DNA from: Candidatus Omnitrophota bacterium
Lineage (GTDB): Bacteria > Omnitrophota > Gorgyraeia > Zapsychrales > Zapsychraceae
DNA: 64,000 nucleotides
NCBI GenBank assembly: GCA_015233195.1
Contig: JADFYE010000009.1
Location: 8,026-72,025 of the forward strand
Direction: 5' to 3'
The translations under genes and the position numbers were made by a program. The notes below the pieces were generated by a model. That model did no database searches. It was not told where the DNA came from and saw nothing but the letters and a program-made list of their open reading frames with translations. Shown one piece after another: positions 2 to 45,178 of this stretch (position 1 is the first letter of the stretch; every line of letters starts with the position of its first letter).

Positions 2-808
2 GTATTAACCCAGCCGCAATTAGCAGTACGTTTTATGACTGTTAAAAGTAACAAAGAACTAAACCGCGCAGTCATGGTCGGAGGTATTTTTATTTTATTA
101 ATGACTGGCGTGGCTTTTACTGTAGGTGCTTTATCAAATGCTTACTTTGTAAATAACCCGCAATTTGGAAAAATCTCGATCGCAGTTGCAGAAGGTAATA
201 TCGACAAAATCATACCTTTGTATGTTAATTCAGCTATGCCGCATTGGTTCGTGTACATTTTCATGCTAACTCTTTTAGCAGCAGCTATGTCGACCAGCAG
301 TTCTCAATTCCACTCAATGGGAACATCTTTCGGAAGAGATTTTATTGAGCGCACTTTCTTTAAAGGTCAAAAAAGCAGTCTTGGCATGACCAGGCTCGGT
401 ATAGTAATTAGTGTAATTATAACTGTTGTGTTAGGTTATAAATTACCAATAAGCGTGATAGCGGTTTCAACTGCAATATTTTTTGGAATGTGCGCCAGCA
501 TTTTCTTACCGGTATTTATCGGCACACTTTATTTTAAATGGATGACCAAAACCGGCGCGATCTGCAGTATGTTAGTCGGTCTATTTGGTTCAGCAGGATG
601 GATGTTGTTCGTACATCTAAAAGAATCCAATGCAATCGGATTTTGCAAATTCGTATTCAGTAAACCAAGTGTTGCTTCATTTCCTTGGACCGTAGTAGAC
701 CAGCTTTTTGTAATTTTACCGCTATCATTTTTAACCGCAATAATAGTTAGTTTGCTCACTAAAAAGCCTGATCAAACTCATTTAAACAATTGCTTTAAAC
801 ACATTTAA
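2..808 (+). CDS. sodium:solute symporter (SSF) family transporter, 5'-truncated by window edge
   Basis: Reading frame is open back to nt 2. '..QPQLAVRFMTVKS' resembles the SSF 'QPHIxxRFM' motif. The rest is multi-pass hydrophobic C-terminal region. Confidence 0.8.
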   Translation, partial: VLTQPQLAVRFMTVKSNKELNRAVMVGGIFILLMTGVAFTVGALSNAYFVNNPQFGKISIAVAEGNIDKIIPLYVNSAMPHWFVYIFMLTLLAAAMSTSSSQFHSMGTSFGRDFIERTFFKGQKSSLGMTRLGIVISVIITVVLGYKLPISVIAVSTAIFFGMCASIFLPVFIGTLYFKWMTKTGAICSMLVGLFGSAGWMLFVHLKESNAIGFCKFVFSKPSVASFPWTVVDQLFVILPLSFLTAIIVSLLTKKPDQTHLNNCFKHI

Positions 809-812
809 CCAA

Positions 813-860
813 AACCAACCCCGGGGGTTGTCGAATTTACGACAACCCCCGGGGTTGGTT
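813..860. terminator. perfect 21-bp GC-rich hairpin (putative terminator after the symporter gene)
   Basis: aaccaaccccgggggttgtcg (813-833), loop aattta, cgacaacccccggggttggtt (840-860) is an exact inverted repeat. No clear U-tract on either strand. Confidence 0.5.
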
Positions 861-874
861 CCGGTTCAAAACTA

Positions 875-2371
875 ATGAAAATATCACGTATCATCATAGT
901 ATTGGCGCTCACCGTAGGAATAGCATACGCGATTATATTAATAAAACCATCACATACTAAAGAATCCTTTATCGAAGCAGTAGCTAAAGGTCATATCGAT
1001 ATAGTAAAATCGTTTATAAAAAATGACGCAAATGTTAATACAAAAGATATTAATGATAATACTGTTTTGATACTGGCATCTGATGGAAACCATGCTGATG
1101 TAGTAAAACTGTTGCTTGATAAAGGCGCTAATGTTAATGCGAAAAATAATAAGAGTCTTACTGCTTTAATGGTAGCTTCTTATAAGGGTAATACCGACTT
1201 GGTTAAACTATTACTTCTTGATAAAAGTATTGATGTAAATGCAAAAAACAATCAAGGAAATGCCGCTTTGTTAGGGGCAGCTGCAAAAGGTTATATTAAA
1301 ATAGTAGAGCTGTTGATTGATCATAAAGCTGATGTTAATGCAAAACACATGCAAGGTCTTACTGCTTTGATGATAGCCGCTCAAGAAGGACATATTGATG
1401 TAGTGAAACTATTAATAGATAAAGGCGCGAATATTAACGCAAAAGACATGACTGATAATACTGCATTAATGCTGGCATCTGAACGGGGTCATACTGAAAT
1501 AGCTAATATGCTAACTGCTGCCAACAAAGTAAAACAAGCATCTAATATTCAACAAGCTGCGACCAGCAAAGAATCCTTGGTAGAAGCAGCATTAGACGAC
1601 AATATCGATTTAGTGCAGCAGTTGCTTGATAATGGCGCTGATGTTAACTTAAAAAACAAGTCAAGCATCACTGCTTTGATGGGAGCATCGTATAAAGGCA
1701 ATGCTGAAATAGTTAAACTGTTAATCAAAAAAGGCGCAAATATTAATTTAAAAAATAATGATGGTACTACTGCTTTTATGTTTGCATCTACAAAAGGCAA
1801 TATGGAAATAGTTAATATGCTCCGCGATGCAGAGACGGCAATGCAGGAATCCAATAGTGAAAAAACAAATACAACCAACCAAGAATCTTTAATCGAAGCA
1901 GCATTTAATGGTCATATCGACGCTGTAAAATCCTTGCTAGAAAATGGCGCAGATGTTAATGCAAAAACCCAAAAAGGCAGTGTTACTGCTTTAATAGGAG
2001 CAGCTGCTGTAGGTCAGATTGAAATAGTAAAACTTCTCCTTGATAAGGGGGCAGATGTGAACGCAAGAGCATACCTGGCAGGTTCAGAAGGGATTACTGC
2101 CTTAATGGCTGCAGCTCAAAATGACCAAGGTAAAATAGTGAAGCTGTTGCTTGAGAAAGGCGCGGATATTAACGCGAAAGACAAATACGGTCTTACGGCT
2201 TTATTATTAGCATCCTATAGAGGTCATGCAGATATAGTAGAGATGTTGCTAAAAAATGGTGCTGATGTGAACGCTAAAAATGGCGATGGCACAACCGCTA
2301 TAATGTTTGCTTCTAAAAAAGACCGCTACGAAATCATAAAAATGCTCCGTGCCGCAGGGGCGAAAGATTAA
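875..2371 (+). CDS. membrane-anchored ankyrin-repeat protein
   Basis: N-terminal hydrophobic anchor (IIIVLALTVGIAYAIILI) followed by a dozen or more ~33-aa ANK repeats. Recurring pattern is 'TALMxASxxGHxxIVKLLLxKGADVNAK'. Confidence 0.9.
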   Translation: MKISRIIIVLALTVGIAYAIILIKPSHTKESFIEAVAKGHIDIVKSFIKNDANVNTKDINDNTVLILASDGNHADVVKLLLDKGANVNAKNNKSLTALMVASYKGNTDLVKLLLLDKSIDVNAKNNQGNAALLGAAAKGYIKIVELLIDHKADVNAKHMQGLTALMIAAQEGHIDVVKLLIDKGANINAKDMTDNTALMLASERGHTEIANMLTAANKVKQASNIQQAATSKESLVEAALDDNIDLVQQLLDNGADVNLKNKSSITALMGASYKGNAEIVKLLIKKGANINLKNNDGTTAFMFASTKGNMEIVNMLRDAETAMQESNSEKTNTTNQESLIEAAFNGHIDAVKSLLENGADVNAKTQKGSVTALIGAAAVGQIEIVKLLLDKGADVNARAYLAGSEGITALMAAAQNDQGKIVKLLLEKGADINAKDKYGLTALLLASYRGHADIVEMLLKNGADVNAKNGDGTTAIMFASKKDRYEIIKMLRAAGAKD

Positions 2372-3036: not shown

Positions 3037-4322
3037 ATAAAATAAATATCGGTTTAATCGGGTTTGGCACTGTTGGTTCTGGTACTGCTGAATTCTTACA
3101 TGCCAAAAAAACCTATATAAAAAATAAGTACCATACGGAATTCGTATTAAAGACTGTATGTGATCTTTATATCACTCCGGATAAAGTAAAAAAATTTGGT
3201 AAAGTAAAAATAACTAAAAAATATCAAGACATCCTGGATGATCCTGAGATAGACGTAGTGGTCGAACTTATTGGCGGACTTCATCCTGCAAAAGAAATTG
3301 TGTTTGGAGCACTTTCTAATGGCAAAGACGTGGTAACTGCCAATAAAGCCTTGATCTCCCATCATGGAAAAGAACTATTTACATTGGCTCAAGAAAATGG
3401 TCTACGTTTATTTTTTGAATCAGCAGTAATGGCAGGCGTACCGACCATAAAAACCGTAACTGAGGGAATTGTAGGGAATGAATTCAACGGTATATACGGG
3501 ATATTAAACGGCACTTGCAATTATATACTAACCCAAATGACTGATAACAATTGTTCATTCCAAGACGCGCTAAAAAAGGCTCAGGAAAAAGGTTATGCTG
3601 AAGCTGACCCGACTCTGGATATCAGTGGAGGGGATACCGCGCATAAGCTTTTGATAATGGCGTATTTAGCATTTGGTAAATTCATAAAGTTCGGCGAGAT
3701 TTACACTGAAGGCATTTCACATATTTCACAAAATGATATTGAATACGCCGAAAGTTTAGGTTTAGCAATAAAATTATTAGCTATAGCAAAAAAAGTAAAC
3801 GGAACAATTGAAGCACGTGTTCATCCAACTTTAATACCCAAAGAACATCCATTAGCGTCTATAAACAGCGTGTTCAATGCCATGTTATTAGATTCTGATA
3901 TGTTAGGTAAAGTTCTTTTATCCGGAGAGGGAGCAGGAAAAATGGCAGCTGCTTCTGGAGTTGTGAGCGACCTTATTAATTTAGTTCATAATCCATCTCA
4001 ACCGATTTTGGCTAATTTGACTTATGAAGATAAATCTTTATCAATCAAAAAGATCGACGATGTTGTGAGTAAATTCTATTTGCGGTTGTTAGCAGTGGAT
4101 AAACCCGGGGTATTATCAAAAATAACCGGCGTATTAGGAAAACACGGTATAAGTATTAATTCCGTTACCCAAAAAGAACAAAATAATAAAGCTCCAGTAC
4201 CAGTGATCATGCTAACTGACCACACTATTGAAAAAAATATGCGCAACGCGCTGAAAGAAATTGAAAAAATGGCAGTTATCAAAAGTAAGCCGGTTGCAAT
4301 ACGAATGGAGACTTTACAATGA
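3033..4322 (+). CDS. hom: homoserine dehydrogenase
   Basis: N-terminal NAD fold 'IGLIGFGTVGSG', central homoserine DH domain, C-terminal ACT-like domain, ~430 aa. Confidence 0.92.
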   Translation: MNKINIGLIGFGTVGSGTAEFLHAKKTYIKNKYHTEFVLKTVCDLYITPDKVKKFGKVKITKKYQDILDDPEIDVVVELIGGLHPAKEIVFGALSNGKDVVTANKALISHHGKELFTLAQENGLRLFFESAVMAGVPTIKTVTEGIVGNEFNGIYGILNGTCNYILTQMTDNNCSFQDALKKAQEKGYAEADPTLDISGGDTAHKLLIMAYLAFGKFIKFGEIYTEGISHISQNDIEYAESLGLAIKLLAIAKKVNGTIEARVHPTLIPKEHPLASINSVFNAMLLDSDMLGKVLLSGEGAGKMAAASGVVSDLINLVHNPSQPILANLTYEDKSLSIKKIDDVVSKFYLRLLAVDKPGVLSKITGVLGKHGISINSVTQKEQNNKAPVPVIMLTDHTIEKNMRNALKEIEKMAVIKSKPVAIRMETLQ

Positions 4323-5371
4323 AATGGACTGGTCTGATAAATCATTACCGGAAATTTTTACCAGTAACTGACAAAACCCCGGTCGTTACTTTGAATGAAG
4401 GAAACACCCCGCTGATTAAATCACTTTATTTGTCGTCGTTGATCGGATTAGAAGTGTATTTGAAATATGAAGGGTTAAACCCGACAGGTTCTTTCAAAGA
4501 CCGGGGTATGACCATGGCTATATCCAAAGCTAAAGAGGACGGTGTAAAAGCTGTAATGTGCGCGTCCACTGGCAACACTTCAGCGTCTGCATCAGCTTAT
4601 GCCGCCCGTGCAGGAATGAAAAGTTTTGTACTAATACCCGACGGTAATATTGCCCTCGGTAAATTAGCTCAAGCCATGATCCACAATGCTACGGTAGTTG
4701 CTATAAAAGGGAATTTCGACCAGGCATTAGAAATGGTTGTAGAGGTAACTAAAAAATATCCGATTGCTTTAGTAAATTCTATAAATCCATTTCGGATTGA
4801 AGGTCAAAAAACTGCGGCATTTGAAATTTGTGATTTTTTAGACGATGCTCCGGAATTTCATGCAATACCAGTCGGCAATGCAGGTAATATTACCGCTTAC
4901 TGGAAAGGCTACAAAGAATATAAACAAGTCGGAAAATCAAAACAGCTCCCGAAAATGTTAGGATTTCAAGCCGCAGGTTCTGCTCCTATAGTTTTAGGCA
5001 AGCCAGTTTTAAAACCTGAGACCATCGCGACTGCTATCAAAATCGGCAACCCTGCAAGCTGGAAATTTGCTGAAGCTGCGCGAGATGAGTCTAAAGGTTT
5101 AATTGATATGGTTACAGATGATGAAATACTTGAGGCATACAAACTGCTTGCTAAATACGACGGTGTTTTTTGTGAACCAGCGTCAGCAGCGTCTGTTGCC
5201 GGTATAATAAAATTAAATAATAAAGGATATTTTAAAGGACAAAAAGGACGCATTGTTTGTACGCTGACTGGGCATGGATTAAAAGATCCAAATATCGCCT
5301 TAAAATGTGTGGGAGAGCCGATAAAGATAAATGCTGATATGAAAGAGCTATTGGAAAAGATTGGATTTTAA
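4319..5371 (+). CDS. thrC: threonine synthase
   Basis: PLP-lysine region 'NPTGSFKDRG'. Short-type ThrC length. Start overlaps hom stop. Confidence 0.92.
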   Translation: MKWTGLINHYRKFLPVTDKTPVVTLNEGNTPLIKSLYLSSLIGLEVYLKYEGLNPTGSFKDRGMTMAISKAKEDGVKAVMCASTGNTSASASAYAARAGMKSFVLIPDGNIALGKLAQAMIHNATVVAIKGNFDQALEMVVEVTKKYPIALVNSINPFRIEGQKTAAFEICDFLDDAPEFHAIPVGNAGNITAYWKGYKEYKQVGKSKQLPKMLGFQAAGSAPIVLGKPVLKPETIATAIKIGNPASWKFAEAARDESKGLIDMVTDDEILEAYKLLAKYDGVFCEPASAASVAGIIKLNNKGYFKGQKGRIVCTLTGHGLKDPNIALKCVGEPIKINADMKELLEKIGF

Positions 5372-6046: not shown

Positions 6047-7245
6047 AATATATAGTTATAGTTCCAGACGGCATGACAGATTTGCCCATAAGTTCTTTAG
6101 GCGGGAAAACTCCTCTCCAAGCCGCACGTACTACAAATATGGACCACATGGCGAGTAATGGAATTTGTGGAATGATCCAAACCATACCTCAAGGTATGCA
6201 GCCAGGATCAGACGTAGGCAACATGTCATTAATGGGATATGATCCAGTTGAATATCATCCTGGTCGTGCGCCGTTAGAAGCTGCCAGCATGAATATTAAA
6301 CTTATGCCGGATGAAATCGCATTCCGCTGTAATTTAATTACCATGAGCGATCATATCATGAAAGATTACAGCGCCGGACATATTAAAAATAAAGAAGCAA
6401 CCGTACTGATCGAAGCTCTAAGTAACGGAATTGATCTGCCATATGGAAAATTTTACGCAGGTAAAAGTTATCGGCACTTATTAGTTTTAAAAGTCCGTGA
6501 CCCGGAAGCTTTTTGTAATATTGAAACTGTTCCTCCGCACGATATACTGGAAAAAGATATCCGTGATTACGCGCCTAAAGGTATTCATTCTGAGGTTCTT
6601 ATCAGCATCATGGAACGCGCGTACGCTATTTTGCATAAACATCCGGTTAATGATGTCAGAATCGATTTAAAAGAAAATCCAGCTAATATGATTTGGTTAT
6701 GGGGGCAAGGGATGAAACCCCAACTTCCAAACTTTAAAGATAAATATGGATTAACTGGGGGAGTAATATCCGCTGTGGATCTAGTTAGAGGCATCGGAAA
6801 ACTCGCCGGACTTGAGGTAATAGAAGTCCCAGGTATAAATGGATACTATGATACGAATTATTTAGGCAAAGCCGAATACGCGATCAACGCCCTTAAAAAT
6901 AACGATTTTGTTTTCATACATATTGAAGCACCGGATGAAGCTGGTCATAACGGCGATATTGAAAATAAAATATTATCATTAGAACGCATTGACCAGGAAG
7001 TCATAGGCACTATACTTAACCGCGTGGATATGCACGATACCAGAATACTGGTTGTAGCAGATCATCCAACACCCGTCGAGGTAAGAACCCACACTTCAGA
7101 GCCGGTAAATTTTCTAATGTATGGCAAAGGCATTGAGCCTAATGGCGCGGTAAATTTTTCTGAAATATCCTGCACAGAAAGAAACTTTAAATTCGCCAAC
7201 GGCGAAGAAATGATTAATTTTTTTATAAAAAAACATTTAGATTGA
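6043..7245 (+). CDS. cofactor-independent phosphoglycerate mutase-like protein (archaeal ApgM type); possible alternative homoserine kinase
   Basis: 'MKYIVIVPDGMTDLP...GKTPLQAA...MDHMA' and 'HIEAPDEAGHNGD' metalloenzyme motifs typical of ApgM. Embedded between thrC/coaB and lysC. Confidence 0.8.
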   Translation: MKYIVIVPDGMTDLPISSLGGKTPLQAARTTNMDHMASNGICGMIQTIPQGMQPGSDVGNMSLMGYDPVEYHPGRAPLEAASMNIKLMPDEIAFRCNLITMSDHIMKDYSAGHIKNKEATVLIEALSNGIDLPYGKFYAGKSYRHLLVLKVRDPEAFCNIETVPPHDILEKDIRDYAPKGIHSEVLISIMERAYAILHKHPVNDVRIDLKENPANMIWLWGQGMKPQLPNFKDKYGLTGGVISAVDLVRGIGKLAGLEVIEVPGINGYYDTNYLGKAEYAINALKNNDFVFIHIEAPDEAGHNGDIENKILSLERIDQEVIGTILNRVDMHDTRILVVADHPTPVEVRTHTSEPVNFLMYGKGIEPNGAVNFSEISCTERNFKFANGEEMINFFIKKHLD

Positions 7246-7254
7246 AAGGATAAA

Positions 7255-8481
7255 TTGATGAAAAAGAAGTTCACAGTTGTAATGAAATTCGGTGGATCTT
7301 CTGTCGCCAATGTCGAGCGCATCCAAAATGTAGCCCGACGTATAATAGATACTAAAACCACGAATAACAATGTAGCGGTCGTGGTATCTGCCATGGGCGA
7401 CACCACTGATGAATTCGAAGAATTGGCGTTCAAATTAAGTAAAAATCCTTCGACGCGCGAAATGGACATGCTGATGTCTACTGGAGAACAAATTTCTTGC
7501 GCGCTGGTTGCTATAGCAATCGAAGAATTAGGACATAAAGCCATATCATTCACCGGCAACCAAGTCGGAATATTAACCGATGGAGAATATTCAAAAGCCA
7601 AAATCCAAACTATTAGCGGCGACTGCATTAAAAAAGCGTTTGCAGAAGGAAAAATCGTTATTGTAGCTGGGTTCCAAGGCGTTGACTCAAAAAATGAAAT
7701 AACTACTTTAGGACGCGGTGGATCAGACCTTACTGCAGTTGCTCTGGCTAAAGCATTAGACGCTGATGTATGCGAAATATTTACAGACGTAACCGGTATA
7801 TACACTACTGATCCGCGGATTGTTAAAGACGCAAAAAAATTAAAAGAGATCACATTTGATGAAATGCTGGAAATGGCGTCATTAGGCGCTCAAGTTATGC
7901 AAGCCCGTTCAATTGAAGTCGCAAAAAGGTTTAACATCCCGCTCCACGTCAGGTCGAGCTTATCAAAGGAGGAAGGTACAATGATCGTAAAGAAACTTGA
8001 AAAAATCGAGGATATCTGCGTAACTGGAGTAACTTTAAATAAAAATGAAGTTAAAATAACCATTTGCGCGGTCCCGGATAAACCAGGCATTGCAGCGCAA
8101 TTATTCGGCGAGGTCTCAAAAGCCGGAGTTAATGTTGATTTAATCGTGCAAAACGTCAGCCACACTAAACAAACTGATATTTCATTCACTGCGCCTAAAG
8201 CAGACTTAAGCAAAGCTTTAGACGCTACTCGTAAAGTTGCAGCTAAAATCGGTGCCGGCGATGTTTTAGAATCCAGTAATATTGCCCGCGTATCTATAGT
8301 TGGTTCAGGCATGCGTTCACATCATGGTATTGCAGCGACCATGTTTAAAACTTTAGCTGATAACAAAATTAATATCGATATGATCTCAACTTCAGAGATC
8401 AGCATTTCCTGCATCATCAATAAAGAAGACGCGGAAAAAGCAGTAACAGTTTTACATAAAGCATTTGAATTAGAAAAATAA
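7255..8481 (+). CDS. lysC: aspartate kinase
   Basis: 'VMKFGGSSV' kinase N-terminus, 'GRGGSD' motif, two C-terminal ACT domains, 408 aa. Confidence 0.93.
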   Translation: MMKKKFTVVMKFGGSSVANVERIQNVARRIIDTKTTNNNVAVVVSAMGDTTDEFEELAFKLSKNPSTREMDMLMSTGEQISCALVAIAIEELGHKAISFTGNQVGILTDGEYSKAKIQTISGDCIKKAFAEGKIVIVAGFQGVDSKNEITTLGRGGSDLTAVALAKALDADVCEIFTDVTGIYTTDPRIVKDAKKLKEITFDEMLEMASLGAQVMQARSIEVAKRFNIPLHVRSSLSKEEGTMIVKKLEKIEDICVTGVTLNKNEVKITICAVPDKPGIAAQLFGEVSKAGVNVDLIVQNVSHTKQTDISFTAPKADLSKALDATRKVAAKIGAGDVLESSNIARVSIVGSGMRSHHGIAATMFKTLADNKINIDMISTSEISISCIINKEDAEKAVTVLHKAFELEK

Positions 8482-28060: not shown

Positions 28061-30364
28061 TTATCGAATAAAAAATATTGATTTTGTCGGTGAAGCAGCT
28101 CCTTTACTATCAACCGCTTTTACCACCAACATATGAAAACCTTTGACAGTATACTGAGTAAACAACAATTTAGTATTAGCCGTTTCTACTGATTGACCAT
28201 TATCAATGCTATAAACATATTTGATCGGATCATTTTCCACATCAGTCGCAGACCAATAAACATATTGCCCAGAAACAGCCCCAGCAGAAGTTATTGTTGG
28301 AGCATTATCAATTTGGCAATTGCTGGTGGTACAAATTTGATTCGCTCCAACCCCTATAGTACCATCGCACTGCTCACTACCGCTTACGATCCCATCACCA
28401 CAAACTGATAATTGTACCAATTTACAACTTGAATCACATTTTTGATTGGCACCTACACCAGCTGAACCGTCGCACTGCTCCTTACCATTTTTTATGCCAT
28501 CCCCACAATACTCAGTGGTTTGACAACTAAGAAAATTGGTGCAAGTTGTCCCGCATTGCATTGTGCCAGCATATCCTGCAGTAGCAATACAAGACAACGA
28601 ATTACTATCACACACTTCCCCTGTTTCTATAACACCATTGCCGCAAACAGCACTCGGCGTCGTTCCTGCCCTCGCCAAAGCCGTCCACCATCCATTAGGC
28701 AGTTTCGCCTCATACACATCCACAGTGCCATCGCCGCCAAGCCAATCCGCCCCCCACCAAATTGACAAACCATCTTTGGAAATCGGAGCATATCCTTCTT
28801 TTATATAATTACCATCGTAATTGTTCCGCATATGCGCTATTTTCCATACCCGAGGATGATCCACATTATCTACCAACTCCAACATAAATACTTGATTTTG
28901 AAGACCAATATAATCCTGAGGATTGTTATAAGTTGAAACTGGTATCCACCCTTTTAAATTACGATTAATAACCCGACCAAAATGAAATCCAATCCTCCAA
29001 TTAGGATCCATATCGCCATGATAAATAACATTCATTTTATTACCATTCAAAACATTTGTAGCAGTGACCCAATCAGTACGGTCATCTTGGCAAACAAATA
29101 ACTCATTGCCATTAATATCAAAAGACCATCCTGAATGTGAAGATGAAACACAAACTTTAATTGGATTAATAAAACTAAGATCAAACGCGTACGCACCGTC
29201 GAAAACCGTGCCAGTATCCTGAGGTCTATTACCCCATTCATATGTTATTGTAATCATATTCGGATTAGAATTTGAATACGGTCTAACATATAATTTTGCC
29301 GCCGTGCTGCTGCTGCCCCTAAAATAATAATATTGACCAGGAGCAGTTAGCATTTGAGCAGGATTATCTATGTAGTCCGACGATCCCGAATATTTAATAT
29401 TTAATTGACCCGCTCTTTTTTCAAAAACTTCACCTATAGAATTACCGCTGGTATCTTCTGCAATATACCAAATATTCGCAGAATACTGAATCCAATTCGT
29501 AACATTACCATACCCACCCCAAGTGCGGTCAAAGTCTAATACAACTTTTTTCCCTGATGGAGCCATCTCAACCATATTTGGTTTTGGTATTGCATGATTA
29601 CCATTTGCGTCATAATAATCATATTTACCACCCAATCTAACATAATCAGAGACCATCAGACGCGATACAATTAAATCGGATTCCTTATCATAAACCATGA
29701 AACCCTGTATCGGATCTTGTCCATTTGTATATGGAAACGTCACCATCCACGCCCAATAGCGCGAATCCGCGGAGCCATCACCTTCAACATCCATAAATAT
29801 TTTTCCGCAATTAGTGTACTCTTTAGAAAAATCGTGGATCAATTGACTTTGTCCATTAGTTACGTCGTACTGCTTGAATTGACAACCATTAACAAAATAT
29901 AAACGATTAGGATATTTACCTGAATTATCCCATCGCATTTCACTGCTTTCCAAACTAGGAAATTCATTAACTAACTTATAGACTGTATTATCTGAGCGAT
30001 TATAAATAATCAACCTGTAATCAGTATTTTCACGGATCATAAAATATTTTGTTCCATCACTATTTTCATGTGGAAACCTGCTGTAAACTGCTCTAACATC
30101 ACCTGCTGTTCCCATATCCATAACTTGGCTTCCATCCTTACACAACGAAACCTTACCATAATGCGAATCCGAAAAACATTGATTCTTTTGCGGTTCACTG
30201 ATCTGATCTAAACCAGCAAATGTTATCGGAGTTCCTTTAGTATACGTCTCTACTGTAAAACCATTCGTAGTTTGTTGCGCAGCATCAGCATAAGAACTAA
30301 TTCCCCATGCTAAAAAAAGGGCAACACCAAAAGTGAACAATCTTGCTATAATGTTCGTGTTCAT
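28061..30364 (-). CDS. secreted protein, paralog 1: signal peptide, ~560-aa domain of unknown family, 3 cysteine-rich CGxG..CD repeats, C-terminal Ig/FN3-like domain
   Basis: Signal peptide 'FGVALFLAWGISSYADA'. Cys-rich modules at 28307-28645 (CGNGVIETGEVCD, CGDGIKNGKEQCDG.., CGDGIVSGSEQCDG..). High identity to 30779-33331. Confidence 0.9.
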   Translation of the reverse strand: MNTNIIARLFTFGVALFLAWGISSYADAAQQTTNGFTVETYTKGTPITFAGLDQISEPQKNQCFSDSHYGKVSLCKDGSQVMDMGTAGDVRAVYSRFPHENSDGTKYFMIRENTDYRLIIYNRSDNTVYKLVNEFPSLESSEMRWDNSGKYPNRLYFVNGCQFKQYDVTNGQSQLIHDFSKEYTNCGKIFMDVEGDGSADSRYWAWMVTFPYTNGQDPIQGFMVYDKESDLIVSRLMVSDYVRLGGKYDYYDANGNHAIPKPNMVEMAPSGKKVVLDFDRTWGGYGNVTNWIQYSANIWYIAEDTSGNSIGEVFEKRAGQLNIKYSGSSDYIDNPAQMLTAPGQYYYFRGSSSTAAKLYVRPYSNSNPNMITITYEWGNRPQDTGTVFDGAYAFDLSFINPIKVCVSSSHSGWSFDINGNELFVCQDDRTDWVTATNVLNGNKMNVIYHGDMDPNWRIGFHFGRVINRNLKGWIPVSTYNNPQDYIGLQNQVFMLELVDNVDHPRVWKIAHMRNNYDGNYIKEGYAPISKDGLSIWWGADWLGGDGTVDVYEAKLPNGWWTALARAGTTPSAVCGNGVIETGEVCDSNSLSCIATAGYAGTMQCGTTCTNFLSCQTTEYCGDGIKNGKEQCDGSAGVGANQKCDSSCKLVQLSVCGDGIVSGSEQCDGTIGVGANQICTTSNCQIDNAPTITSAGAVSGQYVYWSATDVENDPIKYVYSIDNGQSVETANTKLLFTQYTVKGFHMLVVKAVDSKGAASPTKSIFFIR

Positions 30365-30452: not shown

Positions 30453-30483
30453 TTTTATAATATTCGCCACCCAAATCTTAAAT

Positions 30484-30530
30484 ACGGCAACTGGCTATCC
30501 TTTTCATGGGACCCTATAGTTTTGCCGGTA
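30484..30530 (-). promoter_or_regulatory. degenerate c-di-GMP-I aptamer remnant (3' half only)
   Basis: Minus strand 'CCGGCAAAACUAUAGGGUCCCAUGAAAAGGAUAGCCAGUUGCCG' aligns with the 3' half of the intact aptamer at 33453-33526. It lacks the GNRA hairpin and the GGGGACGCAAAGC core. Confidence 0.5.
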
Positions 30531-30778: not shown

Positions 30779-33331
30779 TTATCTTCTAAATGTAATTGTT
30801 TTTGAATTAGAAACAGCTCCTTTATTATCTATGGCTTTAACTGTTATTGTACGAACACCTTTTTTTGTAAATACTGCCATATATAATTTAGTAGCCGTAG
30901 TCGATACCCATTTAGCTCCATCTATACTATACAAATAAGTAATCGAATCCTTATCAGCATCTGTAGCTAACCAATAAATATATTGATTTTGAACCACCCC
31001 TAATGAAATCAGCACCGGCGCATGATTTACCACAACCTGCACCAATTGACAACTTGAATTACAAGTTTGATTAGCGCCTACACCTGCGGTACCATCGCAT
31101 TGTTCTGTTGATTGATTAACAACACTATCACCACAATACGGCAACTGTACCAATTGACAACTTGCATTACATGTTTGGTTAGCGCCTACACCAGCGGTGC
31201 CATCACATTGTTCTGTTGATTGATTAACAATACCATCACCGCAATATGACACATTAACTAACTGGCAGCTGGAATTACAAGTTTGATGAGTGCCTACACC
31301 GGCTGTTCCGTCGCATTGCTCAACACCATTTTTAATTCCATCACCGCAAAATTCTTTAGCTTGACAAGCAAGAAAACCTGTACAAACTGTACCACATTGC
31401 ATCGTCCCATTATATCCAGCAGAAGTTACACAAGTGGTCGAGTTTTGATCACATACTTCTCCAGTTTCTATGAGTCCATTACCGCAAACTGCAGCAACCG
31501 GAAGCATTGCTGTACAAGTCGCGTTACAATATCCTGCTTTTCCATTATTTGCACCACTATCACAAATTTCACTGCCTTCTTTTACTCCATTACCGCAAAC
31601 TGCAGCTGGTGGCGGAGGCGTAGTCACCGTGCCAGTTCTGGATAAAACATTCCACCATCCATAAGGTAATTTTGCTTCATATACATCAACTGTACCATCA
31701 CCGCCCATCCAATCCGCCCCCCACCAAATTGACATTCCGTCTTTTGAAATAGGAGCGTATCCTTCCTTCATATAATTACCGGCATAATTGTTACGCATAT
31801 GAGCTATTTTCCAAACCCGAGGATGATCAGCATTATCCACCAACTCCAACATAAATACTTGATTTTGTAACCCAATATAATCTTGAGTATAATTATAAGT
31901 TGAAACTGGAATCCATCCCTTTAAATCAGGATTTGTAACTCGACCGAAATGAAACCCGATCCTCCAGTTATAATCCATATCACCGTGATAAATAACGTTC
32001 ATTTTGTTACCGTTTAAAACATTAGTAGCAGTTATCCAATCTGTACGGTCATCTTGGCAAACAAATAATTCATTACCATTAATATCAAATGACCAACCAG
32101 AATGTGAAGATGAAACACAAACTTTTACCGGATTAATAAAAGTCGGATCAAAAGCATAAGCACCATCAAAAAGGGTGCCAGTATCCCGAGCTCTATCACC
32201 CCATTCATATACTAAAGATAAAGTGTTAGGATCAACCCCGGTCAGCGTCTTAACATATAATTTTTCTGAAACGCCATCTCCTCCACGGAAATGATAAAAC
32301 TGACCTAAAGTAGTTATCTTGGCTGTAGGATTATCCGTATAATCCGCCCAAACTTCACTATAATATGTTTTAGCGCCTGAACTATTTTCTTCATACACAT
32401 GACTGATCGAATTGCCATAAGTGTCAACCTGCACATACCAAATACCGCTTCCATAATATTGCCAATTAGCAGCATTTACATATCCCCCCCAGGTTCTGCT
32501 ATAATCCAACACAATTTTTTTACCAGAAGGAGCCATTTCTACCATATTAGGTTTTGGCATAGCAGCATTTCCATTTGCATCAAAGAAATCACATTTACCG
32601 CCTAACCTTTTATAATCATCAACATTTAATTTAGACACAATAATATCCGCATCTTTATCATAAACAATAAATTCACGGATCGCGCTCTGCTGCCCATCAT
32701 ACGGCCAAGTAACCATCCATCCCCAATAACGCGAATCAGCAGAACTATCTCCTTCAACGTCCATGAATATTTTTCCACAACCAGCATACTCATTTGAAAA
32801 ATCATGGATCAATTGACTTTGTCCATTCGTTATATCGTACTGTTTGAATTGACAACCTTCGACATAGTATAAACGATTCGGATATTTTCCTGAATAATCC
32901 CACCGCATCTCTATTCCTTCCAAGCTGGGAAATTCATTAACTATTTTATAAACCGTATTATCTGAACGGTTATAAATAATCAACCTATAATCAGTATTTT
33001 CACGGATCACAAAATATTTTGTTCCATCACTATTTTCATGTGGAAACCTGCTATAAACCGCTCTTATGTCCCCCTGTGTTCCCATATCCGTTACCTGACT
33101 ATCATCCTTACATAACTCCACGTTCCCATAATGTGAATCAGTAAAACATTCATTTTTTTGTGGCTCACTGATCTGATCCATACCAGCAAATGTTATTGGA
33201 GTTCCTTTAGTGTAAGTCTCTACTGTAAAACCATTCGTAGTTTGTTGTGCATAAGCATAAGAACCAATTCCCCATGCTAAAAAAAGGGCAACGCCAAAGG
33301 TGAACAATCTTGCTACAATGTTCGTGTTCAT
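30779..33331 (-). CDS. secreted protein, paralog 2: same architecture with 5 cysteine-rich repeats
   Basis: Start placed at 'MNTNIVARLF' (ATG 33331, SD-like GGAUGGGG upstream), matching paralog 1. The track ORF's extra 48 codons run through the leader terminator. Cys-rich modules at 31031-31597. Confidence 0.9.
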   Translation of the reverse strand: MNTNIVARLFTFGVALFLAWGIGSYAYAQQTTNGFTVETYTKGTPITFAGMDQISEPQKNECFTDSHYGNVELCKDDSQVTDMGTQGDIRAVYSRFPHENSDGTKYFVIRENTDYRLIIYNRSDNTVYKIVNEFPSLEGIEMRWDYSGKYPNRLYYVEGCQFKQYDITNGQSQLIHDFSNEYAGCGKIFMDVEGDSSADSRYWGWMVTWPYDGQQSAIREFIVYDKDADIIVSKLNVDDYKRLGGKCDFFDANGNAAMPKPNMVEMAPSGKKIVLDYSRTWGGYVNAANWQYYGSGIWYVQVDTYGNSISHVYEENSSGAKTYYSEVWADYTDNPTAKITTLGQFYHFRGGDGVSEKLYVKTLTGVDPNTLSLVYEWGDRARDTGTLFDGAYAFDPTFINPVKVCVSSSHSGWSFDINGNELFVCQDDRTDWITATNVLNGNKMNVIYHGDMDYNWRIGFHFGRVTNPDLKGWIPVSTYNYTQDYIGLQNQVFMLELVDNADHPRVWKIAHMRNNYAGNYMKEGYAPISKDGMSIWWGADWMGGDGTVDVYEAKLPYGWWNVLSRTGTVTTPPPPAAVCGNGVKEGSEICDSGANNGKAGYCNATCTAMLPVAAVCGNGLIETGEVCDQNSTTCVTSAGYNGTMQCGTVCTGFLACQAKEFCGDGIKNGVEQCDGTAGVGTHQTCNSSCQLVNVSYCGDGIVNQSTEQCDGTAGVGANQTCNASCQLVQLPYCGDSVVNQSTEQCDGTAGVGANQTCNSSCQLVQVVVNHAPVLISLGVVQNQYIYWLATDADKDSITYLYSIDGAKWVSTTATKLYMAVFTKKGVRTITVKAIDNKGAVSNSKTITFRR
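31031..31351 (-). repeat. in-frame tandem repeat (108+108+105 bp) encoding three CGDG..EQCDGTAGVG..C..SCQLV modules
   Basis: Units 31031-31138 and 31139-31246 encode near-identical 36-aa modules (YCGDSVVNQSTEQCDGTAGVGANQTCNSSCQLVQVV / YCGDGIVNQSTEQCDGTAGVGANQTCNASCQLVQLP). The third unit is 31247-31351. Confidence 0.85.
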
Positions 33332-33369: not shown

Positions 33370-33421
33370 CAAAAAATAAAAAAGGCCCAAATCCTATGCT
33401 CACAGGCACAGAATATGGACC
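33370..33421 (-). terminator. leader terminator (expression platform of the proximal riboswitch)
   Basis: Minus strand: GGUCCAUAUUCUGUGCC-UGUGA-GCAUAGGAUUUGGGCC, ~16 pairs with one mismatch, followed by UUUUUUAUUUUUU. Confidence 0.65.
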
Positions 33422-33452
33422 TTTGTAATATTCACTAATAAATTTTTGCACA

Positions 33453-33526
33453 CGGCAACTGGCTATCCTTTTCATAGGACCCTCTAGCTTTGCGTCCCCG
33501 CCTTACGACGGGTTTGCCTTTATCGT
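33453..33526 (-). promoter_or_regulatory. c-di-GMP-I (GEMM-I) riboswitch aptamer, proximal copy
   Basis: Minus-strand RNA is ACGAUAAAGGCAAACCCGUCGUAAGGCGGGGACGCAAAGCUAGAGGGUCCUAUGAAAAGGAUAGCCAGUUGCCG. It has the hallmark GGCAAACC, a GNRA (GUAA) hairpin, then GGGACGCAAAGC. Confidence 0.8.
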
Positions 33527-33537
33527 TTTATCAGACC

Positions 33538-33572
33538 GAAAAAAAGCTCATTCCGGATAATCAGAATGAGCT
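33538..33572 (-). terminator. intrinsic terminator between the two aptamers (expression platform of the distal riboswitch)
   Basis: Minus strand: AGCUCAUUC (33572-33564), 10-nt loop, GAAUGAGCU (33553-33545), a perfect 9-bp stem followed by UUUUUUC (the stem's last U extends this to a run of seven). Confidence 0.7.
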
Positions 33573-33596
33573 AAAATATTCTCGCTTCATCGATCT

Positions 33597-33720
33597 GATT
33601 CGGTAACCGGCTGTCCTGCCTTTCAGGACCCTTGGCTTTGCCTGTGAACCACTTAGATTCACAGCCCTGTACCCTACTGGTTCAGGGGTCCCCACCTTAC
33701 GATGGGTTTGCCTTTATCGT
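33597..33720 (-). promoter_or_regulatory. c-di-GMP-I-like riboswitch aptamer, distal copy, with 46-nt insertion in the core
   Basis: 5' part ACGAUAAAGGCAAACCCAUCGUAAGGUGGGGAC. 3' part GCAAAGCCAAGGGUCCUGAAAGGCAGGACAGCCGGUUACCGAAUC. The two parts are separated by two 23-nt hairpins (33642-33687). Confidence 0.7.
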
Positions 33721-33797
33721 CAAACACAACACAAACTTCTATTTCAAGTATAAACTAAACTAGCTCCAAAAAACAAGTACCCTATAATAAAAAATTT

Positions 33798-44029: not shown

Positions 44030-45178
44030 TTAACCCTGACCTTTACGTGGTGCGGGTTTAACCCTGAACCCTACGTGGTTCAGGGCCATATAAATCACTT
44101 CATAATTTTTCGTCATTTTTTTATCACTGTATCCATCAACCACAATTTTATATGCCGCATCTGCTAATTCAGAGCGCGTTTTTTCATCACTTAACATATC
44201 AAAAATAATTTTTGCTAAAACTTTAACTTCACCAACCCCTACTACTCTGCCTGATATCCGATCATGGATCAAATTTGGTATAGCCCCGATCGGTGTTGCA
44301 ACTATCGCGCATTTAGCTGCCATAGCTTCGAGCAGACACATCGGTAAACCTTCAAAGCGTGAACAAACTACAAACACATCAGTGATAGAATATATTTGCG
44401 GCATATCCTTTCTTATCCCTGTAAATATTACATCCTTTTCAATATGAAACTCCCTCGCTATATTTTCCAAACTATGCCGCAATTCCCCATCACCAACCAC
44501 CAAAAATGTAACATCTCTTCGCTCTTTTAAAACAATATTAGCAGCCTCCAAAAAAACATCATAAGCTTTATCTGCACATAAACGTCCCACAACAGTCACG
44601 ACCTGATTATGCTCTGGAATTCCTAATTGATTCTTACAACTTTTGTCTTTTAAAACATTAAATTTCTCTATATCTATGCCATTATCTACTATTTCTATTT
44701 TCTTATTCGATAAACCAAGCTCAACCATTTCAACTTTAACCCCTTCACTAACTGCGACCAATGCATCAGCAAACCGCATACAAAAAGTATCCAACGCTTC
44801 AAACATTTTTACTTTATCATCCGACGACAACCAATTATGGTTAGTTGCAACCCATTTACATTTAGTCATTCGTGTAGCAAAAAAAGCCAAAACATCAGAT
44901 TTATAATTGTGAGAATTTATTATAGAAAAATTATGCTTCTTAATTAAATTTCTCAAAGCAAATATTGTGCTAAGATCAAATTTTCCTCGGGAATCTATAG
45001 AAAATACCGGTATCTGCATACTGCGTGCGACATCCAAAATTTCAAGATGCGGATTATGTATATTGTTAACCGCACAAACCGCGTACTCAAATTCAGACGA
45101 AGGATTTTTAGCAATATTAACTAAAACCCGTTCCGCGCCGAACATGCCGCAGCTGCTGATTAAATGTAATATTTTCAT
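44030..45178 (-). CDS. glycosyltransferase family 4 (GT-B)
   Basis: 'SRFEGLPMCLLEAMAAKCAIVATPIGAIP' motif. Confidence 0.85.
   Translation of the reverse strand: MKILHLISSCGMFGAERVLVNIAKNPSSEFEYAVCAVNNIHNPHLEILDVARSMQIPVFSIDSRGKFDLSTIFALRNLIKKHNFSIINSHNYKSDVLAFFATRMTKCKWVATNHNWLSSDDKVKMFEALDTFCMRFADALVAVSEGVKVEMVELGLSNKKIEIVDNGIDIEKFNVLKDKSCKNQLGIPEHNQVVTVVGRLCADKAYDVFLEAANIVLKERRDVTFLVVGDGELRHSLENIAREFHIEKDVIFTGIRKDMPQIYSITDVFVVCSRFEGLPMCLLEAMAAKCAIVATPIGAIPNLIHDRISGRVVGVGEVKVLAKIIFDMLSDEKTRSELADAAYKIVVDGYSDKKMTKNYEVIYMALNHVGFRVKPAPRKGQG

Follow-up and report, generated by a model that had tools for sequence, protein, structure and literature searches.

The minus-strand leader of ORF 30779-33331, in the 64-kb stretch of Omnitrophota DNA analysed here (the window), contains two GEMM-I-like aptamers in tandem, and the distal one is interrupted by a 46-nt insert made of two hairpins. 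Architecturally, the distal element is a new variant within the known riboswitch class c-di-GMP-I (GEMM-I), and the variant is widespread in poorly studied phyla. Judging from sequence, the distal copy is on balance probably a c-di-GMP-I switch in which the hairpin doublet is an inserted repeat that survived at a tolerant site, with both hairpins since kept closed by selection.

The gene downstream of the leader (30779..33331, minus strand; gene start at 33331) encodes a secreted 850-aa protein that has Cys-rich repeats and belongs to no known family; HQL25_04600, from a Candidatus Omnitrophica MAG, matches it with 100% identity. Genes for PEP-CTERM proteins and for a sugar transferase lie nearby. 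Apart from a paralogue within the window, the nearest relative of the protein is 42% identical, so orthologous leaders were not comparable and the route through protein homologues was dropped. The proximal aptamer (33450..33527, minus strand) is uninterrupted, matches RF03167 with 72.2 bits (E = 3.8e-15) and is followed by a terminator-like hairpin and U run (33378..33424, minus strand) that is recognisable in the sequence and whose stem appears in weak Rfam alignments. A decayed GEMM-I aptamer lies upstream of the paralogue, ORF 28061-30364, at 30482-30526 on the minus strand (GGCAAA|ACUAUAGGGUCCCAUGAAAAGGAUAGCCAGUUGCCGUAU). This remnant is without the entire P2 hairpin and GACGCAAAG, as if by a deletion between two GCAAA repeats, and retains P3, the P1 3' strand and a terminator near-identical to that of the proximal switch.

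The distal aptamer, insert included, occupies 33598..33721 on the minus strand, as delimited by RF03167, by our own covariance model R1 and by alignment to the proximal copy, and from 33721 to 33598 it reads GACGAUAAAGGCAAACCCAUCGUAAGGUGGGGAC | CCCUGAACCAGUAGGGUACAGGG | CUGUGAAUCUAAGUGGUUCACAG | GCAAAGCCAAGGGUCCUGAAAGGCAGGACAGCCGGUUACCGAAU. A pairwise alignment of the distal and proximal copies has a single clean 46-column gap, between GGGGAC and GCAAAGC, which bears out the preliminary description of this DNA in its claim that a 46-nt insertion is confined to the distal GEMM-I copy. The insert (33687-33642, minus strand) separates GGGGAC from GCAAAGCC. The two copies agree at 33/35 positions 5' of the gap, the two differences compensating for each other by turning a G-C pair of P2 into A-U, and their 3' halves are collinear. 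At -22.5 kcal/mol (z = -4.1), the insert forms two flush hairpins of 23 nt each, a stability that 0/200 shuffled sequences reached. The first hairpin, H1 (33665..33687, minus strand; CCCUG-A-ACC AGUAG GGU-A-CAGGG), has 5+3 pairs flanking an A-A mismatch and the loop AGUAG, and belongs to a CCCUGAACC...GGUUCAGGG hairpin family. The second, H2 (33642..33664, minus strand; CUGUGAAUC UAAGU GGUUCACAG), has nine pairs, one of them U-G, and the loop UAAGU, and it aligns with the second hairpin of the doublets at loci L120, L156 and L028. Folding thus matched the earlier account in every particular: two 23-nt hairpins with 5-nt loops, the A-A mismatch in H1, and nine pairs with one G-U in H2. There are zero linker nucleotides between H1 and H2 and between H2 and G45, and there is no target-site duplication at the insert, which would fit a REP/BIME-like repeat without being evidence for one. 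A reading of H1 and H2 as mutual duplicates was not used, their similarity being only weak (permutation p about 0.02-0.05).

We number the distal copy as the Vibrio cholerae Vc2 aptamer, by alignment to the Vc2 sequence and with the numbering in PMC11705072. The insertion point so defined is C44|G45, on the 3' side of the internal loop of P2 (P1b in Rfam) and two base pairs above the three-way junction; the partner of G45 is C22, and the two belong to the lower stem of P2, which is 2 bp long. The part of the core that lies 5' of the insert (33688..33712, minus strand) comprises G20 (33712), the G21-C22 half of the 2-bp lower P2, the AAA loop, the P2 hairpin CCCAUC-GUAA-GGUGGG and G42-A43-C44 (C44 = 33688), as assigned from the sequence, the mapping to Vc2 and covariation in upper P2. 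The part 3' of the insert (33603..33641, minus strand) comprises G45-C46 (33641-33640), A47 (33639), the P3 hairpin with the bulged AG of GACAGCC (the G83 equivalent), the closing helix AGCC/GGUU, A91 and C92 (33603), as assigned from sequence and alignment. The ligand-contact nucleotides of the distal copy are therefore G 33712 (G20), A 33639 (A47) and C 33603 (C92) of the minus strand, and the nucleotides of the inter-helix contacts, namely C44, the bulged AG in GACAGCC and the GNRA-type P2 loop GUAA, are present as well. C44 forms a Watson-Crick pair with G83 across helices, and ligand binding needs this pair and is abolished by G83C (PMC11705072). Since the insert lies in the P2 internal loop, the three-way junction is unchanged and the AAA/GAC loop becomes a four-way junction. 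The higher-order junction proposed in the preliminary description is accordingly found in the P2 internal loop, but not at the three-way junction itself, which is unaffected by an insert two base pairs above it.

The conserved strands of P1, P2 and P3 (GGCAAACC / GGGAC / GCAAAGC / AGCC...RCCG) are all present in the distal copy and, if the insert is left out of the comparison, collinear with their proximal counterparts, and the copy lies in a 5'-UTR with an expression platform. At the level of sequence, it has all the defining features of c-di-GMP-I riboswitches and fails on the Rfam score alone. RF03167 gives it 32.5 bits against a threshold of 59, with model positions 1-80 aligned, and its absence from the run at gathering thresholds places its RF01051 score below 35. 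The covariance model opens no insert at C44|G45; it reads H1 as P3 and pushes 54 nt into the P3 loop, and this misplacement of the 46-nt insert is the cause of the sub-threshold score. The Rfam alignment, which had been proposed as a means of telling a local insert from a truncated hit, gave no local insert at the site and misplaced the hairpin as P3. The failure is one of an operational criterion and not a biological one. In contrast to the Rfam models, R1 scores the distal copy at 61.1 bits over 33722-33635. Rfam alignments were rejected as a guide to the insertion point, the insert being misplaced or skipped in both the distal copy and L028. Also rejected was the idea, hinted at by the covariance-model alignment, that the insert arose when part of P3 was duplicated, since a perfect P3 is present downstream. 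The c-di-GMP-I-GGC variant (RF03167) is the best-scoring Rfam model for both window copies, but its consensus GCGAAgC has a G at the position of A47, whereas both copies have an A (GCAAAGC) and so are not GGC variants. Rfam clan competition would mislabel both aptamers (33450-33527 and 33598-33721, minus strand) as RF03167.

Folding suggests a dedicated expression platform for the distal aptamer. In the 158-nt and 192-nt folds, the 5' strand of a predicted extended P1 (GUUGUGUUUGACG; 33718..33730, minus strand) pairs with 33602-33589, and progressive folds place the putative P1 3' strand (CG-AA-UCAGAUCGAU) at 33589..33602 on the minus strand. An intrinsic terminator, with an 11-bp stem (33572-33545) and a U run, is recognised from sequence and folding at 33538..33572 on the minus strand. 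In the progressive folds there is also an antiterminator alternative, in which AAUCAGA (33600-33594) pairs with UCUGAUU (33565-33559) in competition with the extended P1. Binding of c-di-GMP would stabilise the extended P1 and tie up the antiterminator strand, whereupon the terminator at 33572-33545 would form. As a ligand-stabilised P1 favours termination, the distal riboswitch is predicted to be an OFF switch, a direction read from minimum-free-energy folds. The distal aptamer would then be the first of two complete tandem switches ahead of the gene for the secreted protein, and the proximal switch would act as a second checkpoint after it.

The architecture of the distal aptamer is not confined to the window. 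One genome per species from 185,579 species was scanned with the pattern GGCAAACC-N4-GNRA-N4-GGGAC-N{18,48}-GCAAAGC, which matched at least 119 loci, against about one expected by chance from a hand calculation. About half of the matches listed were ordinary aptamers with a second GCAAAGC downstream. At ten loci from Steroidobacteraceae and other proteobacterial MAGs (L011, L022, L024, L041, L044, L059, L067, L081, L093 and L103), a canonical GEMM-I has a second GCAAAGC 46-47 nt on, and the spacers before it closely resemble one another from species to species, which points to a conserved arrangement at these loci, either in tandem or with an expression platform. True inserts of 18-48 nt at C44|G45, the one insertion site that the pattern sampled, were found in at least 56 unique sequences (the window included). 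Among the matches listed, 46/56 inserts fold as two flush hairpins, compared with 3.7% of dinucleotide shuffles (median z -3.9), and 39 of these 46 abut at all three boundaries without a linker; the remaining inserts are mostly longer hairpins, with the pattern matched within the second stem. The insert of L080, at the same bond, is one hairpin followed by AA. The hosts among the matches listed are overwhelmingly Omnitrophota MAGs, along with MAGs labelled 'uncultured Planctomycetia/Planctomycetales', Auribacterota and one Ratteibacteria MAG.

Both hairpins of the class appear to be maintained as hairpins. In an anchored alignment of 33 sequences, each of the 10 outer pairs in H1 and H2 has both-sided changes, and the outer-pair cells are paired in 98-100% of cases, compared with 29-48% after the partner is shifted by one to three columns, in a set of sequences partly fold-selected beforehand and an alignment anchored on structure. 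A covariance model built from this alignment was used to re-align 61 natural sequences, and the pairing result was unchanged, with ranges of 97-100% and 29-49% over the two alignments together. The scan pattern itself fixed G20, the GNRA loop, GGGAC and GCAAAGC, so the conservation of those positions is built in. The 3' halves were examined with a strict register test that calls for three features, namely the closing helix of P3, C92 and a P1 3' dinucleotide complementary to the 5' strand: at least 29/57 aptamers pass, compared with 2.5 in the control, and on visual inspection several others do so if shifted by one nucleotide. The distal aptamer of the window conforms to the strict 3'-half rule. 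Despite the insert, 7/18 tested loci reach the RF01051 threshold over their full length, at 37-43 bits, and 11/18 are missed. A search for homologues and covariation, which the preliminary description had put forward as the way to assess the inserted stems, has thus returned at least 56 same-site inserts with compensation at all 10 outer pairs, and its suggestion of an unrecognised structural subclass is upheld to the extent that a two-hairpin insert recurs at the same bond, with compensatory changes, in dozens of species-level genomes. Four of the doublet-bearing loci (L035 2357-2495, L054 200-338, L114 3743-3883 and L004 1065-1203) have tandem heptamer repeats, e.g., (UAGCUCA)n, in the P3 region.

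An intriguing question is where the doublet came from. BLAST of the insert against the window revealed a near-identical hairpin at 44062-44085, within the last codons of the unrelated ORF 44030-45178. The element at this position (44034-44086, minus strand) consists of a perfect hairpin, GCCCUGAACC-ACGUAG-GGUUCAGGG, and then a degenerate second unit (CCCGCACCACGUAAAGGUCAGGG), with both units ending in GUUAAA, and it may have replaced the C-terminus or the stop codon of the ORF. The H1-type hairpin has two copies in the 64 kb, and a hairpin scan of the entire window brought up no other doublets. The strongest hairpin of the window is a perfect, G+C-rich one of 21 bp at 813-860 (AACCAACCCCGGGGGTTGTCG-AATTTA-CGACAACCCCCGGGGTTGGTT).

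Metagenomes were scanned for the H1-type hairpin with the pattern GCCCTGAACC-N{4,8}-GGTTCAGGG, and the hairpin was found on at least 120 contigs. A related second arm (..UGCAC..) lies alongside it in 57 of those listed, and GCGGAAU-like heptamers flank it on 25 contigs among the matches listed. The recurrence of loops and flanks among the matches listed rules out chance. In many of the listed contigs, GCGGAAU/GCGGAUU heptamer repeats border the hairpin doublets. The insert of the window aligns end to end with the doublets of L120 and L156; it is identical to the former at 39/48 aligned positions (81%), and the score of that alignment is 28, compared with -4.7 +/- 7.9 for other two-hairpin aptamer inserts. 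The A-A mismatch of H1 is a departure from the consensus of the hairpin family. Doublets of this kind also occur outside riboswitches, as in L156 and L215, where they begin at the 3' ends of tRNA genes. In L120, a group I intron (796-1096, minus strand; RF00028, 61.5 bits) lies beside a tRNA-like 3' exon, and the hairpin doublet comes directly after the exon. When the first 100 listed contigs were searched with R1, the hairpin was found inside a doublet-bearing GEMM-I aptamer in L131 alone.

Other associations between such hairpins and GEMM-I aptamers were encountered. The single hairpin of the L080 aptamer matches the window hairpin at 44062-44085 at 25/26 positions. An uninterrupted c-di-GMP-I aptamer in L190 (527-614, plus strand; RF01051, 63.2 bits) has the repeat hairpin GCCCUGAACC...GGUUCAGGG as its P3. 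The Omnitrophota MAG of L106 has two GEMM-I aptamers (7180-7400 and 4230-4420, both minus strand) with extra flush doublets of the UCCGCCA...UGGCGGA type, one of which occupies J1/2, directly before G20, while another interrupts the 5' strand of upper P2; these aptamers also show a long insert in the P3 loop. Hairpins of this D type (UCCGCCA...UGGCGGA) were found within aptamers only. When the inserts were compared by BLAST with the collected loci, few copies were found outside aptamers, the CCCUGAACC family excepted, and no Rfam family was found to cover the hairpin doublets. A looser arm search for hairpin copies was discarded because chance matches swamped it. Taken with its relatives, the insert looks like a REP-like hairpin-doublet repeat at a permissive site.

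How might an aptamer accommodate such an insert next to its ligand pocket? The doublet would make the P2 internal loop a four-way junction of lower P2, upper P2, H1 and H2. Because linkers are absent between H1 and H2 and between H2 and G45, the two hairpins may stack coaxially, in the manner of a nicked helix. Stacked in this way, H1 and H2 would let the strand enter and leave at adjacent positions, with C44 and G45 staying effective neighbours, so that the pocket (G20, A47 and C92), the C44-G83 pair and the fold around the GNRA loop can form normally. We infer such stacking of H1 on H2, and with it a structurally silent geometry; nicked-helix stacking would also explain why doublets rather than single hairpins are found within strands and why their boundaries are flush. 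The doublet would have originated as an inserted dispersed repeat, of which the window holds a diverged copy, and would have survived because the C44|G45 site tolerates it.

All that the covariation demonstrates is a need for the hairpins to stay closed, which is expected for an adaptive module and for a passenger inside a selected aptamer alike. Given the homology of the window insert to the dispersed doublet, a tolerated passenger is no less likely than a new domain of adaptive value. An alternative that we regard as possible, if doubtful, is that the hairpin pair is a selected module of a distinct c-di-GMP-I subclass that tunes affinity, kinetics or folding. It might, for instance, do so by steadying the lower P2 stem of 2 bp or by way of contacts of its GNRA loops, and there is some chance, though not a large one, that the distal and proximal switches would then answer to different c-di-GMP levels, a plain and a doublet-bearing aptamer being in tandem in the leader of the window. 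Consistent with selection for a function of its own, the doublet is found at one site and with flush geometry and compensatory changes in several phylum-level groups of MAGs (by record labels). The paralogues L111 and L113 differ by a compensatory C-G to U-A change in H2, and the sequence of H1, its loop included, is conserved across L020, L031 and L100. Moreover, many members have, unlike the dispersed repeat, a short 5-bp H1 with a GNRA cap (GUCCC-GAAA-GGGAC), and these hairpins could be a real tertiary-contact domain. Against such a role, a folded passenger that spares a selected aptamer would covary too, and the doublet of the window is homologous to doublets outside riboswitches. Across the class the loops, lengths and sequences of H1 and H2 are not conserved; L080 has a single hairpin and AA at C44|G45, and the doublets of L106 are at other sites in the aptamer.

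In weighing the two, we considered the plain twin aptamer next door, the doublets at other sites and the variable loops and lengths to favour a repeat-derived passenger, and the wide spread at one exact bond, the GNRA-capped H1 hairpins and the partial conservation of H1 to favour domestication. We lean slightly towards a tolerated passenger over a tuning domain. A broader and speculative possibility combines them: flush doublets may be a class of repeat that is able to colonise any strand of a structured RNA by way of a silent four-way junction, and that has been domesticated at C44|G45 in Omnitrophota and other PVC-group bacteria as a ligand-tuning domain, giving a subclass that covariance models largely miss.

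It is improbable that the insertion inactivated the distal copy and left the proximal switch to work alone, as the preliminary description had allowed. The sub-threshold Rfam score, the A-A mismatch of H1 relative to its family and the fast evolution of the aptamers of this gene family, as seen in the loss of P2 from the remnant in the leader of the paralogue, are all compatible with decay. However, every core nucleotide outside the insert is kept, ligand contacts included, and P2 shows a compensatory change; a platform of matching terminator and antiterminator is in place; and the architecture persists in dozens of genomes, with the 3' halves intact in at least 29/57. The least likely reading is the change of ligand that had also been raised, in which the RNA, its pocket reshaped, would respond to a different cyclic dinucleotide or to a second input, e.g., a hairpin-bound protein: the insert is only 2 nt ahead of A47 and the weak similarity of H1 to H2 within the sequence (p about 0.02-0.05) could suit a dimeric binder, but that similarity is marginal, H1 and H2 have no conserved common sequence across the class, and G20, A47 and C92 are the canonical c-di-GMP set, whereas cGAMP variants (GEMM-Ib) carry G20 -> A.

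The preferred reading, a c-di-GMP-I switch with a tolerated repeat, can be set beside systems that are already known. With canonical c-di-GMP-I riboswitches such as Vc2 (RF01051, clan CL00126), the distal copy has in common the three-helix aptamer, the strands GGCAAACC, GGGAC, GCAAAGC and AGCC...ACCG, the nucleotides G20/A47/C92 and C44/G83, the GNRA loop of P2, the location in a 5'-UTR and the terminator platform. Unlike Vc2, it has 46 nt in C44|G45, so that the 3-nt/3-nt P2 loop becomes a four-way junction, and it scores below the Rfam threshold. In Weinberg 2007 (PMC1950547), the P2 helix is described only as stems of 2 bp and 6 bp around a 3-nt internal loop. The tandem c-di-GMP riboswitch Bc3-5 of Bacillus thuringiensis (PMC4759541) and the tandem GEMM riboswitches of delta-proteobacteria (PMC1950547) likewise have two complete switches of the same class in one leader, each with its own terminator, but the pair in the window differs in architecture, one aptamer being plain and the other doublet-bearing.

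The inserted element resembles REP, BIME and REPIN repeats in that these are short, G+C-rich imperfect palindromes of several sequence types that are often arranged as doublets and occupy many intergenic places, including positions after tRNA genes. Such repeats have many copies per genome and are mobile or associated with RAYT or IS200/IS605-type transposases. The likeness rests on palindromes, doublets and dispersal, and the copy described here differs in sitting inside a functional RNA fold. Another analogue is provided by the Rickettsia palindromic elements, which Ogata et al. are said to have described in 2000 as inserted in protein-coding and RNA genes. They too are selfish palindromic repeats that persist where the fold of the host macromolecule tolerates them, but the host in our case is a small ligand-sensing aptamer and the insert is a flush pair of hairpins beside its pocket. 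Searches across 8 million papers and preprints, with subscription-only papers and Rfam full alignments outside their scope, found no description of a doublet-bearing GEMM-I, and nothing relevant on GEMM-I in Omnitrophota or Planctomycetes or on REP elements in riboswitches. The doublet-bearing design is thus apparently undescribed, and it recurs in Omnitrophota and related bacteria.

The doublet-bearing aptamers amount to a natural experiment, which indicates that the ligand-pocket strand may be interrupted two nucleotides from the intercalating adenosine if the insert is a flush pair of hairpins, and this flush-pair rule may be useful in the engineering of c-di-GMP sensors. The tandem of a plain and a doublet-bearing aptamer in the window offers a built-in comparison for any effect of the doublet on affinity or kinetics. 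More broadly, the findings tie dispersed palindromic repeats to the elaboration of a riboswitch fold, as an RNA counterpart of the palindromes that are tolerated in protein genes. Since Rfam thresholds miss the distal copy as well as 11 of the 18 doublet-bearing loci tested, the c-di-GMP regulons of Omnitrophota and related uncultured phyla are under-counted, which a covariance model that tolerates the insert would remedy.
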